From the IMG/VR virus record IMGVR_UViG_3300042895_002216: DNA of 64,000 bases, one strand, 5' to 3'. A program made the position numbers and the translations under genes. The notes beneath the pieces are model-generated. The model made no database searches and was not told where the DNA came from. It was given only the letters and a program-made list of their open reading frames with translations. Of this stretch, positions 36,257 to 39,215 are shown piece by piece; within the stretch, counting starts at the first letter, position 1, and every line of letters begins with the position of its first letter. The stretch comes from a virus. Taxonomy: Duplodnaviria; Heunggongvirae; Uroviricota; Caudoviricetes.

Positions 36257-36332
36257 TGGTGAGGTAGCTCAGATGGTAGAGCACAGGACTGAAAATCCTG
36301 GTGTCGGCGGTTCGATCCCGCCCCTCACCACC
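36257..36332 (+). tRNA. tRNA-Phe (GAA), CCA encoded
   Basis: Acceptor GGTGAGG/CCTCACC. Anticodon loop CTGAAAA. T-arm GGTTCGATCC. Confidence 0.85.
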
Positions 36333-36411
36333 AACAAAAAAATGAATAAGAATATGAAACGTAAACGCTAAAGGCCCAGTGACTCCCAGAGTTACAGGTC
36401 TAAATACACAG

Positions 36412-36485
36412 GTCTTCGTAGCTCAGTTGGTTAGAGCACCTCACTTTTAATGAGGGAGTCACAGGTTCGAGTCCTGTCGGGGACA
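36412..36485 (+). tRNA. tRNA-Lys (TTT)
   Basis: Anticodon arm CCTCA-CTTTTAA-TGAGG. T-arm AGGTTCGAGTCCT. Confidence 0.8.
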
Positions 36486-36491
36486 CTAAAC

Positions 36492-36568
36492 TGGAATATA
36501 GCTCAATTGGTTAGAGCATTCGCCTGATACGCGAAAGGTTATAGGTTCGATTCCTATTATTCCAACCA
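36492..36568 (+). tRNA. tRNA-Ile (GAT), CCA encoded
   Basis: Anticodon loop CTGATAC. T-arm AGGTTCGATTCCT. Confidence 0.8.
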
Positions 36569-36573
36569 AACAT

Positions 36574-36651
36574 TGCGGGATGCGTAGAAAGCGGTTATCT
36601 CGTCAGTCTCATAAGCTGAAGTTCCCGGTTCGAGTCCGGGTCCCGCAACCA
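36574..36651 (+). tRNA. tRNA-Met (CAT), elongator-type
   Basis: Anticodon arm TCAGT-CTCATAA-GCTGA. T-arm CCGGTTCGAGTCCGG. Confidence 0.75.
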
Positions 36652-36660
36652 AAAGAATAC

Positions 36661-36732
36661 ACGGATGTGGTGCAATGGTAGCATGCGGGTCTCCAAAACC
36701 CTAGATGGGAGTTCGAATCTCTCCGACCGTGC
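36661..36732 (+). tRNA. tRNA-Trp (CCA)
   Basis: Anticodon loop CTCCAAA. T-arm GGGAGTTCGAATCTCTC. One mismatch in the acceptor stem. Confidence 0.7.
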
Positions 36733-36828
36733 AAATCTTTCGAAAGAAAGTGACTAAATTAAACCTAATGTGGTATAGTAATCATATAAGTTTAACAAGA
36801 GTTCTTTGACTTATTGGAGATTGAAAAT

Positions 36829-36899
36829 TGTCCTGTGGTGTAATGGCAGCACGTCTGGTTTTGGTCCAGAAGATCGAGGTTCGAATCCTTGCGGGACAA
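36829..36899 (+). tRNA. tRNA-Gln (TTG)
   Basis: Anticodon arm TCTGG-TTTTGGT-CCAGA. T-arm GAGGTTCGAATCCTT. Confidence 0.8.
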
Positions 36900-36904
36900 C
36901 ATAT

Positions 36905-36976
36905 TGCGGGGTAGAGCAGTGGTAGCTCGTTGGGCTCATAACCCAAAGGTCGTCGGTTCGAATCCGGCCCCCGCTA
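36905..36976 (+). tRNA. initiator tRNA-fMet (CAT)
   Basis: Three consecutive G:C pairs in the anticodon stem (GGG/CCC) flanking CTCATAA, and an unpaired 1:72 (T:T). Both are initiator hallmarks. Confidence 0.8.
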
Positions 36977-36981
36977 CTAAT

Positions 36982-37087
36982 GATTAGATGGGCGTAATGC
37001 GGGATGGTACCCAAGTCCCGAACTCGAAAGAGGTAAGGTTGTCTACTCCGTCTTGCACGGTATCCGGTTCGAGTCCGGCTCTAATCA
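36982..37087 (+). ncRNA. atypical 106-nt tRNA-like gene, identity unresolved
   Basis: Acceptor GATTAGA/TCTAATC (7 bp) and T-arm CCGGTTCGAGTCCGG are clear. About 30 extra nt in the body contain a CTC-GAAA-GAG tetraloop hairpin. No unambiguous anticodon loop. Confidence 0.4.
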
Positions 37088-37196
37088 CCCGGATCCATGC
37101 ACGTCGAGCGCAAACCAATCGCTCTTCAGGTAGATTTGCATGGATAAACAACCCGTCACGGTATACCCACAGGGTAGGAGTGAACTGGAGAGAAAT

Positions 37197-37268
37197 GGTC
37201 CTGTAGTTAATCGGCTATAACGCCGCCCTGTCACGGCGGTATGCCGGGTTCGATTCCCGGTGGGACCG
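37197..37268 (+). tRNA. tRNA-Asp (GTC)
   Basis: Anticodon arm CCGCC-CTGTCAC-GGCGG. T-arm CCGGGTTCGATTCCCGG. Confidence 0.8.
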
Positions 37269-37457
37269 CGAAAGTATATCAACAGAAGTCCGACTTGCAC
37301 GGATGAAAGGAACCTTGGCTCCATGGGATTAGCTACCCAACCGGAGAGATATAAATGACCCAAGGTACTCTGTTCAGGTCCCTGCTCTACTGTGCACAGT
37401 ATCAGGTTATGGGGAACAAACCATAAGTAAAAACCGGAGCACGGTATACTTTTATTT

Positions 37458-37529
37458 GGCCCGTTAGTCTATCGGTTAGGACACGCCCCTTTCACGGGTG
37501 AGAGACGAGTTCGATTCTCGTACGGGCTA
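37458..37529 (+). tRNA. tRNA-Glu (TTC)
   Basis: Anticodon loop CTTTCAC. T-arm CGAGTTCGATTCTCG. Confidence 0.8.
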
Positions 37530-37675
37530 CTAAGAACAACGGTCTCTCCGGCCAATGTGATGTCGACAATCACGGTCGGATCAAGAGTTCACCACCCTCA
37601 GCCTGGGCCCAGAGAAAACTCTGATGAAGCTGTTAAGATTGGAGCGAGACGGGTACTCCAACGTTGTTCTTAAAT

Positions 37676-37752
37676 GGGCTGTTAGCTCAGTTGGCTAGAG
37701 CACCGCACTTGCACTGCGGGGGTCGAGAGTTCGAGTCTCTCACGGTCCACCA
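37676..37752 (+). tRNA. tRNA-Ala (TGC), CCA encoded
   Basis: G3:U70 pair in the acceptor stem. Anticodon arm CCGCA-CTTGCAC-TGCGG. Confidence 0.85.
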
Positions 37753-37757
37753 ACATT

Positions 37758-37831
37758 GCCTCCTTAGCTCAGTTGGCCAGAGCGCCTCACTTGTAATGAG
37801 GATGTCGGCGGTTCGAATCCGTCAGGAGGCT
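37758..37831 (+). tRNA. tRNA-Thr (TGT)
   Basis: Anticodon arm CCTCA-CTTGTAA-TGAGG. Confidence 0.8.
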
Positions 37832-38010
37832 CACATCGTATTAGGGTCGTGCCGCATTTTGCCACGATACGAAATAGACTTGAGAGGATCAGAGGCGGCC
37901 GTGACTACCTCAAGTCGAAGTTAGATAGTGTCTCGGTACGCTCTGGTTAGTCGCAAGACTTTCTAACGACGAGGTCCCGGTGGGCAGAACGCGTCTGATC
38001 CCACCCACTT

Positions 38011-38086
38011 GCGGGAGTAGCTCAGTTGGTAGAGCGCAACCTTGCCAAGGTTGAGGTCGCCGGTTCGAACCCGGCCTCCCGCTCCA
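38011..38086 (+). tRNA. tRNA-Gly (GCC), CCA encoded
   Basis: Anticodon arm CAACC-TTGCCAA-GGTTG. Confidence 0.85.
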
Positions 38087-38089
38087 TAA

Positions 38090-38159
38090 GCGGATGTCGT
38101 ATAATGGCTTATTACTCCAGCCTTCCAAGCTGGAGATGCGAGTTCGATTCTCGCCATCC
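38090..38159 (+). tRNA. tRNA-Gly (TCC)
   Basis: Anticodon arm CCAGC-CTTCCAA-GCTGG. Short D-loop. Confidence 0.75.
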
Positions 38160-38243
38160 GCTCGACCGGTGGCTCCCTTAATGGTTCGAGGCCGACCTCA
38201 AACATCGGTGATACGTCATACAGGGGGCGAAAGCGTATCAAAC

Positions 38244-38316
38244 AGTCCTTTAGCTCAGTTGGTAGAGCATCTGTTTTACATGCAGAGGGTCGTAGGTTCG
38301 AATCCTACAGGGACTA
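38244..38316 (+). tRNA. tRNA-Val (TAC)
   Basis: Anticodon loop TTTACAT. T-arm GTAGGTTCGAATCCTAC. Confidence 0.75.
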
Positions 38317-38605
38317 CTATGAGCAAGAGATACTCAGTAAGATTGGTCGCATTCTTTAAAAAAGCGATGGTAGTGAAAAAGTCCTCGACCTTAATGGGGG
38401 ATCGATTCGGGTAAACGTGAGCAAGACTCTGCCGCGCCGACGTAGAGAGTTGACAGGTTTTTATGTGGTAAGACACTAATGAAAAAGACTTATTGGGGGA
38501 GGACCGTATAGTCTAAGACGTCAATAAGGGATATGGTTCTCGAAACAGTCAGAGAAACCCGTTAAAATCCAGTCTTCGTACAAGTCTCAGTATGGAGCAA
38601 ATTAT

Positions 38606-38682
38606 CGAGATGTTGGGGAGTCCGGTTACCCCGCCTGCTTTGGGAGCAGGAGAACTCGCAGGTTCGAATCCTGCCATCTCGA
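38606..38682 (+). tRNA. tRNA-Pro (TGG)
   Basis: Anticodon arm CCTGC-TTTGGGA-GCAGG. T-arm GCAGGTTCGAATCCTGC. Confidence 0.75.
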
Positions 38683-38790
38683 CAAAAGAACCTTAGTAGA
38701 GGCTGACTCCACCAGCTAGGACGTAACGTTCAAGCCTAGCTGAAAGCACGCGCTTGCGCTGAAATGGTGGTCGAGGTTCTTTTATTTTAT

Positions 38791-38865
38791 TGGGTGTTAG
38801 CTCAGCGGTAGAGCTCTCGACTGTTAATCGAGTGGTCCCAGGTTCGAATCCTGGACACCCAGCCA
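38791..38865 (+). tRNA. tRNA-Asn (GTT), CCA encoded
   Basis: Anticodon arm CTCGA-CTGTTAA-TCGAG. Confidence 0.85.
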
Positions 38866-39003
38866 AGGTTGATTAGGGAATGATTGTGTCAATAGTTCGA
38901 GAGTGAATGCTGACTGACATAATCGGAGTTTGCAGGCATTCACCAGAGTAATGCTAATCGTAAAATGAGATGTCCACTGAACCATCTTCTCATTTCCTTA
39001 CCT

Positions 39004-39090
39004 GCCGTAGCGCTGAAGTTGGAGAGTCAGGACAGACTGTAAATCTGTTGTCGTAAGGCTGAGTAGGTTCGAATCCTACCTGCGGCACCA
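39004..39090 (+). tRNA. tRNA-Tyr (GTA), class II, CCA encoded
   Basis: Anticodon arm ACAGA-CTGTAAA-TCTGT. Long variable arm. T-arm GTAGGTTCGAATCCTAC. Confidence 0.8.
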
Positions 39091-39141
39091 AGTAGTTTTG
39101 AGGTGGGCGAATTCTACTCTAAAAAAATAATCCCTCCACCA

Positions 39142-39215
39142 GGACCTTTAGCTCAGTTGGTTAGAGCAGCGCACTCATAATGCGAAGGTCTCAGGTTCGA
39201 GCCCTGAATGGTCCA
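39142..39215 (+). tRNA. third CAT-anticodon tRNA (candidate tRNA-Ile2/lysidine or second elongator Met)
   Basis: Anticodon loop CTCATAA. Acceptor GGACCTT/ATGGTCC with one mismatch. Confidence 0.65.

Follow-up and report, generated by a model that had tools for sequence, protein, structure and literature searches.

The main tRNA array of a large freshwater phage with a probable Bacteroidota host: decoding set, C74 convention and conserved spacer RNAs

Bacteriophages T4 and T5 carry co-oriented clusters of transfer RNA (tRNA) genes that are interspersed with small non-tRNA RNAs. These RNAs, which are rnaC and rnaD in the T4 tRNA region and RNAI, RNAIII, RNAIV, RNA1, RNA2, RNA3, RNA2H and RNAX in that of T5 (some of them annotated as tRNA-like), are stable, and their function is unknown. 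Among the tRNA-rich jumbo and huge phages, the large Xanthomonas phage XacN1 covers all 20 amino acids with its tRNAs (PMC5852040), which number 56, are redundant and lie in its terminal repeats, and the huge phages of Al-Shayeb et al. (2020) also have large tRNA-rich genomes. Structured phage and prophage RNAs of the GOLLD and ROOL families often lie beside tRNA genes and are possibly co-transcribed with them (PMC5737381). The subject of this study is the main tRNA array of a large phage that is known only from freshwater metagenomes and is uncultured. It is located at 36258-39216 of a 64,000-nucleotide (nt) stretch of the IMG/VR record IMGVR_UViG_3300042895_002216, and this whole stretch is called the window.

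In kind, the finding is ordinary, since a tRNA-rich large phage with a tRNA nucleotidyltransferase is also what T4, T5 and the jumbo phages are like. As in T4 and T5, non-tRNA RNAs (named S3a to S10 in this study) lie between the co-oriented tRNA genes; here they are conserved and are known from sequence. On the other hand, there is no sequence similarity to T4 or T5 beyond single tRNAs, the set covers all 20 amino acids, and the families of the spacer RNAs are different ones. Some T4 tRNAs lack an encoded CCA, as is the case here, but the CCA-less genes of T4 show no rule for nucleotide C74. Compared with XacN1, the 28 genes of the window form a minimal one-per-box set and are interleaved with non-tRNA RNAs. 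It is likely that the locus is best explained as the main tRNA array of a large freshwater phage probably infecting Bacteroidota, characterized by its decoding set, its C74 convention and its conserved spacer RNAs. The phage has a genuine and complete tRNA set, an earlier explanation of its CCA pattern is corrected, and the CCA signal points to the host lineage.

The tRNA genes and the decoding set

By ARAGORN, Rfam and inspection, 28 tRNA genes were found in the window, all on the + strand and together covering all 20 amino acids. Eighteen of them lie in 36258-39216, and the others are at 33559, 53120 and 59084-60010. ARAGORN called 26 tRNAs, all on the + strand (one at 33559, 18 in 36258-39216, one at 53120 and six in 59084-60011), and the Rfam model RF00005 confirmed every one of them at 37-77 bits (gathering score 29). 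The acceptor stem has 6-7 of 7 pairs in 25 of these 26 calls; only the call for tRNA-Met at 36581-36651 has 5 of 7. This call is mis-registered, and the correct register is that of Rfam, 36574-36648 followed by CCA. The 27th tRNA (59162-59244) was found through the Rfam tRNA-Sec model at 47.9 bits (gathering score 47), while the 28th (59511-59598) is a paralogue of it with the same fold, overlooked by both ARAGORN and Rfam and placed 5 nt after tRNA-Leu(UAA) and 1 nt before tRNA-Arg(UCU). An earlier note on this DNA, written from the letters alone, had counted about 30 tRNA genes for all 20 amino acids and had allowed that a scan might score most of them as pseudogenes. The coverage of 20 amino acids holds and the genes are genuine, all 26 ARAGORN calls scoring above the Rfam threshold; the count is to be changed to 28 tRNAs plus three tRNA-like RNAs.

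In the following, all genes are on the + strand, each was found by ARAGORN and Rfam unless other evidence is given, and where CCA is not encoded, the triplet after the tRNA body is stated. Upstream of the array lies a canonical type II tRNA-Ser(UGA) (33559-33646, CCA encoded). The array itself begins with tRNA-Phe(GAA) (36258-36333, CCA encoded), tRNA-Lys(UUU) (36412-36485, then CUA), tRNA-Ile(GAU) (36492-36568, CCA encoded), an elongator tRNA-Met(CAU) with an atypical D stem of 3 base pairs (bp) (36574-36651 in the Rfam register, CCA encoded), tRNA-Trp with the anticodon CCA (36661-36731, then CAA), tRNA-Gln(UUG) (36829-36899, then CAU) and the initiator tRNA-fMet(CAU) (36905-36976, then CUA). 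These are followed by tRNA-Asp(GUC) (37197-37268, then CGA), tRNA-Glu(UUC) (37458-37529, then CUA), tRNA-Ala(UGC) (37676-37752, CCA encoded), tRNA-Thr(UGU) (37758-37831, then CAC), tRNA-Gly(GCC) (38011-38086, CCA encoded), tRNA-Gly(UCC) (38090-38162, then CGA), tRNA-Val(UAC) (38244-38316, then CUA), tRNA-Pro(UGG) (38606-38682, then CAA), tRNA-Asn(GUU) (38791-38865, CCA encoded), tRNA-Tyr(GUA) (39004-39090, CCA encoded) and a CAU tRNA (39142-39215, then CAA), whose best alignments are with tRNA-Ile(CAU) of T4 (score 25) and tRNA-Ile2 of T5 (22), as against 3 for T5 tRNA-Met. This CAU tRNA is a probable lysidine-type tRNA-Ile2.

Downstream, tRNA-Leu(UAG) (53120-53200, CCA encoded) stands apart. 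The last cluster consists of tRNA-Cys(GCA) (59084-59153, then CAA), an (8/4) tRNA-Ser(UGA) (59162-59245, then CUC; Rfam tRNA-Sec model and fold), tRNA-His(GUG) (59261-59338, CCA encoded; ARAGORN and inspection), a second tRNA-Leu(UAG) (59342-59417, then CAA), tRNA-Leu(UAA) (59425-59505, then CUA), an (8/4) tRNA-Ser(GCU) (59511-59598, CCA encoded; inspection and fold), tRNA-Arg(UCU) (59600-59673, then CAA) and tRNA-Arg(ACG) (59938-60010, then CUU).

The earlier note had read three CAT species, including an initiator, and a tRNA-His with an encoded G-1 opposite C73, and both readings agree with the present results. In the initiator at 36905, U1 faces U72 and the CUCAUAA loop is flanked by GGG/CCC, so that it shows both features of bacterial initiators, namely the lack of a Watson-Crick pair at 1:72 and an anticodon stem with a run of three G-C pairs; its nearest relative is the fMet tRNA of T5. 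The other two are the elongator tRNA-Met at 36574 and the probable tRNA-Ile2 at 39142. In tRNA-His, which has the canonical 7/5 form, G-1 at 59261 lies opposite C73 at 59335, and CCA is at 59336-59338.

The tRNA-Ser genes at 59162 and 59511 have the 8/4 architecture, with an 8-bp acceptor stem and a 4-bp T stem. Their D stem is 6 bp long and closed by a loop of 4 nt in the UGA gene and of 3 nt in the other, the variable stems have 5-6 bp, and both genes have G73. This form was obtained in minimum free energy folds of both genes and of two homologues, with compensatory changes, and the Rfam tRNA-Sec alignment agrees with it for 59162. Such (8/4) tRNA-Ser or allo-tRNAs are known, and (8/4) tRNA-Ser has been reported in bacteriophages too (Mukai et al. 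2017, PMC5389517); they share the 8-bp acceptor stem, the 4-bp T stem, the long D stem with a small loop, the long variable arm and the Ser anticodons. Unlike in that study, no (8/4) tRNA-His accompanies them here, and a canonical tRNA-Ser(UGA) coexists at 33559. An identity of the gene at 59162 as tRNA-Sec was ruled out. Its loop CUUGAAA has the anticodon UGA, which reads the Ser codon UCA, and not the anticodon UCA, so that the Rfam match reflects shape only.

There are 24 distinct anticodons, one per box. A tRNA with U34 serves every four-codon box, with GCC in addition for Gly, while the pyrimidine-ending two-codon boxes have G34 tRNAs and Arg has ACG and UCU. If four-way reading by U34, inosine at position 34 of tRNA-Arg(ACG) and lysidine in the CAU tRNA at 39142 are assumed, the only sense codon for which no reader is encoded is CGG, which makes up 3% of the Arg codons. 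Given this near-complete codon reading, the set appears to be a minimal complete decoding kit, which is more than coverage of the 20 amino acids. In the open reading frames (ORFs) of the window (14,100 codons), the third codon position is 68% A+T and AUA accounts for 21% of the Ile codons. A comparison of the anticodon set with the codon usage of the phage showed that the set suits its A/T-ending codons.

The 3′ ends and the C74 convention

Of the 28 genes, 11 encode CCA and the other 17 lack it, as marked above for each gene, and all the genes that the earlier note had named as having or lacking CCA were classified correctly there. All 17 CCA-less genes encode C74 (P ~5e-13 at 19% C), and 13 of them have A at position 76. 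As tallied, the trailers are CAA (seven), CUA (six), CGA (two) and CAU, CAC, CUC and CUU (one each). Is this regularity peculiar to the window? I collected 1214 unique tRNAs from 322 related viral loci and found that 14.3% have CCA and 98.6% have C74. Position 75 of the CCA-less genes among them is A in 67%, U in 22%, G in 8% and C in only 2%. The frequency of A76 is no higher than expected from trailers that are A-rich in general (positions 77-79). CCA status is independent of the isoacceptor and differs among orthologous tRNAs. The actual regularity is that C74 is always encoded and that C75 is almost never encoded unless the full CCA is present.

Other phages and cellular genes were then compared. 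Nearly all tRNA genes of T5 (host E. coli) and of Tunturi_5 (Acidobacteriota) encode CCA, and C74 is found there as part of CCA. In T4 (E. coli), CCA is encoded in 4 of 8 genes, and the CCA-less genes read UAU, AAU, CUG and CGC. The Synechococcus cyanophage S-CBWM1, which has a nucleotidyltransferase of the same short family as the window, encodes CCA in 2 of 36 genes and mostly has U at position 74. Two phages of Bacteroidota follow the rule: Cellulophaga phage phi17:2 has CCA in 1 of 23 genes and C74 in 23 of 23, and Bacteroides phage crAss001 (Crassvirales) has CCA in 2 of 20 and C74 in 19 of 20. The rule is also followed by cellular genes. Metagenomic tRNA-Ile and tRNA-Ala genes of ribosomal RNA (rRNA) operons, located downstream of the 16S 3′ end GCGGCTGGAACACCTCCTTT, which I take to be a signature of Bacteroidota, have CCA in 15 of 131 cases and C74 in 130 of 131. 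In addition, of 21 contigs from metagenome-assembled genomes (MAGs) that carry the tRNA-like frame described in the next section, 12 were binned as Bacteroidota. The C74 pattern and the binning of these related contigs agree, and the phage host is therefore predicted to be, probably, a member of Bacteroidota.

The enzyme that had been invoked for these ends is present. At 49462-50199 on the + strand, where the earlier note had placed a CCA-adding enzyme, an ORF encodes a class II tRNA nucleotidyltransferase of 245 amino acid residues with head and neck domains only (PF01743, PolyA_pol head, E 6e-15). Motif A (GGKVRD...DVDYV, in the stretch GGKVRDEILGLQSKDVDYV as read from the translation), motif B (RRDFTLNAL) and the neck motif D (DDPLRILRA, in the stretch DDPLRILRAIRF, aligned to DDPLRVLRAVRF of 9kma) were recognized. 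Its best solved relatives are CCA-adding and A-adding enzymes, with which only the head and neck align; in the 441-residue T. maritima enzyme, the aligned part is residues 37-257. Bacterial class II CCA-adding enzymes have about 390-440 residues with body and tail domains, whereas the phage form is without them, and motifs A, B and D are common to both. The short form is widespread in phages: 336 phage records have members of this family, usually annotated as tRNA nucleotidyltransferase, for example in Microbacterium, Cellulophaga, Synechococcus and Arthrobacter phages. Relatives of the enzyme are encoded by 159 viral contigs, the best 80 being 59-77% identical. No biochemical characterization of the short phage enzyme was found in the literature. 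Its role is most likely to provide extra capacity for CCA completion and 3′-end repair of the phage tRNAs.

What could be the use of a lone C74? RNase T is slowed by C residues. In bacterial RNase P RNA, a conserved G of loop L15 forms a pair with C74, and RNase Z is blocked by CCA (Wegscheid and Hartmann 2007, PMC1874595). Keeping C74 while breaking the CC doublet could retain the contact with RNase P, mark the 3′ end and still permit endonucleolytic or exonucleolytic removal of the trailer, after which C75 and A76 would be added.

The earlier note had taken the uneven CCA as fitting the phage's own CCA enzyme, which amounts to a phage-specific strategy in which the phage tRNAs depend on, or are licensed by, the viral enzyme. 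It is true that the enzyme gene is conserved in relatives of the phage, that 17 of the 28 tRNAs require completion of CCA, and that phage phi17:2 has both the enzyme and the pattern. However, crAss001 shows the pattern and has no such nucleotidyltransferase annotated in the ~100 kb of its record examined, cellular rRNA-operon tRNAs share it, and S-CBWM1 has the enzyme family without the C74 rule. This distribution makes the strategy unlikely, as does the variation of CCA among orthologous tRNAs irrespective of the isoacceptor, and it argues that the CCA pattern reflects the host lineage, not the phage enzyme: it appears to be a convention of the host lineage that phages copy and no device of this phage. 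Scarcely credible is the notion that the tRNA genes are non-functional relics, that is, captured host genes in decay whose CNA ends are degraded CCA. Some covariance-model scores are low and some D arms are odd, and the 13 trailers that read C-N-A do look like mutated CCA, but A76 is matched by the generally A-rich trailers, and a position 74 kept as C at 98.6% next to a C75 depleted to 2% indicates selection, not decay. Besides, all 26 ARAGORN genes exceed the Rfam threshold, the acceptor stems are paired, and the set is complete, non-redundant and matched to the phage codon usage. If the pattern is indeed a host-lineage convention, the rule that C74 is always and C75 rarely encoded may serve as an inexpensive marker, read from sequence alone, by which Bacteroidota hosts could be predicted for phages that are uncultured. 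This marker looks new.

Conserved spacer RNAs and tRNA-framed RNAs

The spacers between the tRNA genes are not inert. Whole spacers recur as modules in the arrays of other phages, beside different tRNAs, and all spacer families are on the same strand as the nearest tRNA. S3b, S5, S7 and S10 abut the downstream tRNA at a median distance of 1-6 nt. At least six families of conserved structured RNAs appear to be encoded in the spacers, among them an extended freshwater-1 RNA and a tRNA-like RNA. Apart from freshwater-1, no spacer matches Rfam at E <1, a sensitive scan of the whole window included. All spacer RNAs described below are on the + strand.

S4 (37281-37441) is an extended freshwater-1 RNA of about 165 nt with seven helices. 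Its part at 37371-37432 matches the whole 62-nt Rfam model RF02979 at 67.3 bits (E 1e-14), which is under the gathering score of 72. The two-hairpin core of freshwater-1 with CCCUGCUCU...GUGCAC...CAGG is present in S4. I found 55 homologues through a degenerate form of the motif core, and they align over ~165 nt. In an RNAalifold consensus of 37 unique sequences, there are 35 pairs in seven helices, and compensatory changes were observed in 25 of the 35 pairs. The cells of the alignment are paired in 98.1%, compared with 80.6% after shuffling (none of 500 shuffles reached the observed value), and pairing falls to 28-44% when the partners are slid by 1-3 columns. Helices 5-7 are 98-100% paired with compensatory changes. 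In nearly all loci, S4 starts 11-19 nt 3′ of a tRNA on the same strand. Compared with freshwater-1 as defined in Rfam RF02979 (Weinberg et al. 2017), the conserved RNA is thus longer and has four further helices 5′ of and around the core, and the tRNA-array context was not found in the main text of that paper. An exact 30-mer of freshwater-1 had no match in the viral contigs. The motifs ACAGAAG and UGAAAGG in S4 resemble those of RNase P RNA; they belong to a variable hairpin and its context, and a P4 helix was ruled out. These results place an orphan Rfam motif in a genomic setting, that of phage tRNA arrays, and extend its structure.

S5 (37531-37672) is a structured RNA with a folding z-score of -2.96. 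It is bracketed by the repeat TAAGAACAACG/CGTTGTTCTTA at 37531-37541 and 37662-37672, and its closing helix P1 corresponds to the repeat AGAACAACG/CGTTGTTCT pointed out in the earlier note. P1 shows compensatory changes in 8 of 9 pairs among 48 sequences. The invariant cores are GUCGAC, CACCC and UUAAGAUUGGAGCGAGA-CGGGUACUCCA, and further interior helices covary by eye. A 17-mer of the core occurs in more than 116 viral contigs, and a hidden Markov model (HMM) gave 118 matches, 73 of them unique. For 103 of the 118 matches, the nearest tRNA lies within 300 nt; it is always on the strand of the match (103 of 103), and the downstream tRNA is a median of 4 nt away. S5 has no Rfam match, and at least one widespread RNA family without such a match is brought to light in this way. 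A perfect 10-nt palindrome lies in S5 at about 37598-37608 of the window (columns 99-110 of alignment A3). It occurs as CUGGGCCCAG, CGAGGCCUCG, CAGUGCACUG or CUGGAUCCAG and covaries while staying palindromic, which suggests an alternative pairing or RNA-RNA dimerization. A hammerhead was considered for the motif CUGAUGA in the S5 of the window and rejected, the motif not being conserved in the homologues. The extended freshwater-1 RNA, its tRNA-array context and the S5 family look new.

S3a (36982-37087) is a tRNA-like RNA, recognized by covariation and an HMM. Its tRNA features are an acceptor stem of 7 bp (GAUUAGA/UCUAAUC), a T arm (CCGG-UUCGAGU-CCGG) and A73 with CCC after it, while an anticodon loop is absent; the arrangement of N73 and C74 is as in the tRNAs of the window. 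The acceptor and T stems covary in six homologues. The HMM gave 24 matches, the nearest tRNA being on the same strand in 23 of 23, and there was no Rfam match. S3b (37090-37196) consists of two hairpins and is conserved (folding z-score -2.4), with the repeat ATCCATGCA/TGCATGGAT at 37093-37101 and 37137-37145 forming the stem of the first hairpin. S6 (37833-38010) is conserved in 13 loci, S7 (38164-38243) is conserved and abuts tRNA-Val, and S8 (38318-38605), 288 nt in length, is conserved in five loci. S9 (38684-38790, folding z-score -2.65) has a closing helix formed by 38684-38693 and 38774-38783, and a single homologue has two compensatory pairs. S10 (38866-39003) was followed with an HMM, which gave 39 matches, all on the same strand as the nearest tRNA and separated from the flanking tRNAs by a median of 3-4 nt; its conserved cores are AAUCGUAAAA, GUCCAC and ACCAUCUU.

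The GOLLD and ROOL RNAs, which are about 600-800 nt in length, are much larger than these RNAs. There is no sequence relation to them, and no Rfam match to them was found in the window.

Two further elements outside the array keep a tRNA frame. In a sensitive Rfam search of 52950-53750, a "tRNA" of 121 nt was found at 53353-53473 with 34.5 bits, and in this element (53353-53474, + strand) the acceptor stem is AGUCAGG/CCUGACU, the D arm is that of tRNA-Leu, the T arm is normal, and A73 and C74 are present; a structured insert of 72 nt, made up of hairpins, stands where a tRNA has its anticodon and variable arms. The second tRNA-framed RNA (2150-2251, + strand) has the same acceptor stem and T arm and a different D arm, and U73 is followed by CUA. 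When a few substitutions were allowed, 144 copies of the frame were found in 67 of the 322 viral loci. These copies (118 unique) are 72-275 nt in length, with up to six per locus (L291, L253, L275 and L289 are examples; L-numbers are the labels of the 322 viral loci examined plus reference loci). The frame, nearly invariant and usually with the tRNA-Leu D arm, would derive from tRNA-Leu. The hypervariable inserts of 20-150 nt are unrelated to each other and fall into 97 cargo clusters. In recurrent clusters, compensatory changes were found inside the cargo, including a pseudoknot-like arrangement. Is the conserved frame an artefact of the search? In a search anchored on the Leu D arm alone, 32 of 35 long elements carry AGUCAGG or a one-base variant, while Leu tRNAs of canonical size bear other acceptor stems. 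Thus the conservation of the frame is not a search artefact.

In the genomes of 185,579 species, the frame was found on only 21 contigs, all from MAGs, with 24 copies, and none was found in isolate genomes. In these genomes it was always a framed element and never a canonical tRNA, and a copy of a host tRNA-Leu was therefore rejected as its nature. It was also ruled out that the framed RNAs and S3a are intron-containing tRNAs, since there are no conserved halves of an anticodon stem and the loops are without U33 and a purine at 37. For the cargo at 53353, no antisense target in the window scored above shuffled controls. No description of tRNA-framed RNAs was found in the literature, and they look new. 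In crAss001 (L352, 48798-48889, t25), there is a tRNA-like gene of 91 nt with an extended anticodon arm, annotated as tRNA-?(Leu|Ile)(taat), so that other phages of Bacteroidota may also have tRNA-like RNAs in which the anticodon domain is altered.

What are these RNAs for? The earlier note had suggested that the long inverted repeats in the spacers may be processing or stability elements. The repeats do exist, a few bases away from the ends given there, but they are not simple hairpins: they appear to be the closing helices of conserved, independently folding RNAs with several helices and covariation. That the repeats are mere processing or stability hairpins or terminators and the remainder unconstrained filler is highly unlikely. 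Perfect repeats of 9-11 nt bracket several spacers and some folding z-scores are non-significant, as such a model would have it, yet conservation extends over whole spacers, which are modules reshuffled among the arrays, their interiors hold single-stranded cores that do not vary and several helices in which compensatory changes occur, and one spacer matches a curated Rfam family. Candidate readings of the framed RNAs are processing punctuation, natural tRNA scaffolds for cargo, and chargeable mimics that do not decode. It is doubtful that both the spacer RNAs and the framed RNAs are punctuation only, that is, tRNA-derived or structured modules that would direct RNase P and 3′ cleavage and be without a function after their release. 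The ends of the RNAs coincide with tRNA ends, and what the frames retain (acceptor stem, T arm, D/T elbow and C74) is just what is recognized by RNase P, RNase Z and CCA enzymes, the anticodon domain being replaced; all of this suits punctuation. Base pairing would suffice for that purpose, however, and yet the acceptor sequence AGUCAGG is invariant across very different contigs; moreover, the conserved single-stranded cores of S4 and S5 and the covarying structure inside recurrent cargo are left unexplained.

A tentative idea, less likely than not, is that in these freshwater phages, with their probable Bacteroidota hosts, the tRNA arrays double as a platform for the expression and maturation of a large repertoire of structured non-coding RNAs, with the framed RNAs as natural tRNA scaffolds. 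The frame may bring in RNase P, 3′ trimming and the addition of CCA; since it retains A73 and the Leu D arm, leucylation is possible as well. On this view, the cargo may have diverse functions, for example as decoys or sponges for host defence or RNA-binding proteins. If the spacer and framed RNAs are functional, phage tRNA arrays would be more than codon-usage patches and would provide natural equivalents of engineered tRNA scaffolds.

Maturation route, transcription signals and relatives

On the explanation favoured here, the array and the three smaller loci would supply a minimal self-sufficient decoding set. The genes are most likely transcribed as polycistronic precursors, because they are co-oriented and tightly packed. 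The tRNAs would be excised by host RNase P and 3′ processing enzymes, and the 17 C74-only tRNAs would have their CCA completed after transcription, for which the phage nucleotidyltransferase would provide the additional capacity proposed above. Maturation of the tRNAs would also release the spacer RNAs, like the stable RNAs of the T4 and T5 tRNA regions, because their ends coincide with tRNA processing sites.

Several observations weigh against this explanation. The folding z-scores of S3a, S6, S7, S8 and S10 are not significant, and a few tRNAs score low or are atypical (tRNA-Cys at 37 bits, tRNA-Met at 43 bits with its 3-bp D stem, and the two 8/4 tRNA-Ser). The rRNA-operon test spans two isoacceptors only, tRNA-Ile and tRNA-Ala, and the CF319a target confirmed Bacteroidota in just 28 of the 63 rRNA-operon loci that reach far enough upstream. 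In characterized enzymes, the tRNA elbow is bound by body and tail domains, which the 245-residue nucleotidyltransferase lacks, and the activity of the latter may be CC addition, A addition or poly(A) synthesis instead of CCA addition. Lastly, a terminator-like hairpin with a T-run lies directly upstream of the first tRNA in both clusters, at 36217-36252 (8 nt before tRNA-Phe) and at 59048-59083 (0 nt before tRNA-Cys), which complicates simple read-through. These hairpins could be devices for regulated read-through or 5′ leader structures; both lie downstream of a promoter-like motif.

The motif TAGTATAWTA occurs at 11 sites of the window, all on the + strand, compared with 0.45 expected. The sites (1966, 6963, 10858, 13909, 31524, 33047, 43632, 47870, 53666, 58935 and 62958) are nearly all just upstream of ORF starts or RNA loci, and the motif is probably a promoter element of the phage. 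Variants of it are TGGTATAGTAAT at about 36768, inside the main array, and TAGTATAGTAAT at about 39266, just after it. Directly upstream of the two framed RNAs lie GC-rich leaders, at 1980-2149 and 53201-53352, the latter being conserved in L139, L311, L275 and L269, and a terminator was found at 53637-53662. The leaders are probably further structured RNAs in small promoter-to-terminator units.

The genes around the nucleotidyltransferase resemble an RNA-repair cluster. A calcineurin-like metallophosphoesterase (46384-47052, + strand), an RNA ligase (PF09414 with a PHA02142 OB domain; 50773-51975, + strand) and a protein with the cREC_REC cyclic-phosphate-processing domain (51990-52463, + strand) may form such a cluster with it, the latter two having been identified by domain search. 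T4 also pairs its tRNA genes with RNA repair enzymes. An SPFH/Band-7 protein (47947-49380) adjoins the nucleotidyltransferase, and SPFH proteins are annotated in phage phi17:2 and crAss001 as well. The enzyme may perhaps also counter defences that attack tRNA ends; one known nuclease of this kind is Cas12a3, which cleaves tRNA tails (PMC12851939).

The window also encodes subunits of a T4-type topoisomerase II (PHROGs), ClpP, a protein with an SLT lysozyme domain and similar genes. The nearest topoisomerase II sequences (~55% identity) are those of the huge-phage genomes LR745206 and LR756502 (630-640 kb). Two proteins of the window have relatives in 159 and 133 IMG/VR viral contigs of up to ~320 kb, and the relatives of the window are without exception viral contigs, as expected of a phage. 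In a megablast search of the array against 50,697 phage records, only single tRNAs were matched and no close cultured relative was found. The GC content of the array is 49-53%, compared with ~38% for the genome.

The relatives bear the same tRNA genes. The pair of tRNA-Ile(GAU) and the atypical tRNA-Met (36488-36653) is 97.6% identical to that of the contigs L018, L019, L033, L042 and L050, whose remaining tRNAs are merely ~80-90% identical to those of the window, suggesting a recent exchange of the pair or an unusually strong constraint on it. No transfer-messenger RNA (tmRNA) gene was found in the window, while ARAGORN found one near the tRNA arrays of L014 (13563-13958) and of L033 (13556-13955), both of which have a match to the freshwater-1 core. 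Among other viral contigs bearing freshwater-1, L044, L046 and L049 have ARAGORN "Pyl" calls with the anticodon CUA, possible amber suppressors, and L016, L031 and L043 have tRNA calls with the 4-nt anticodon UUAA. These tRNAs could be suppressors or additional tRNA-like RNAs.

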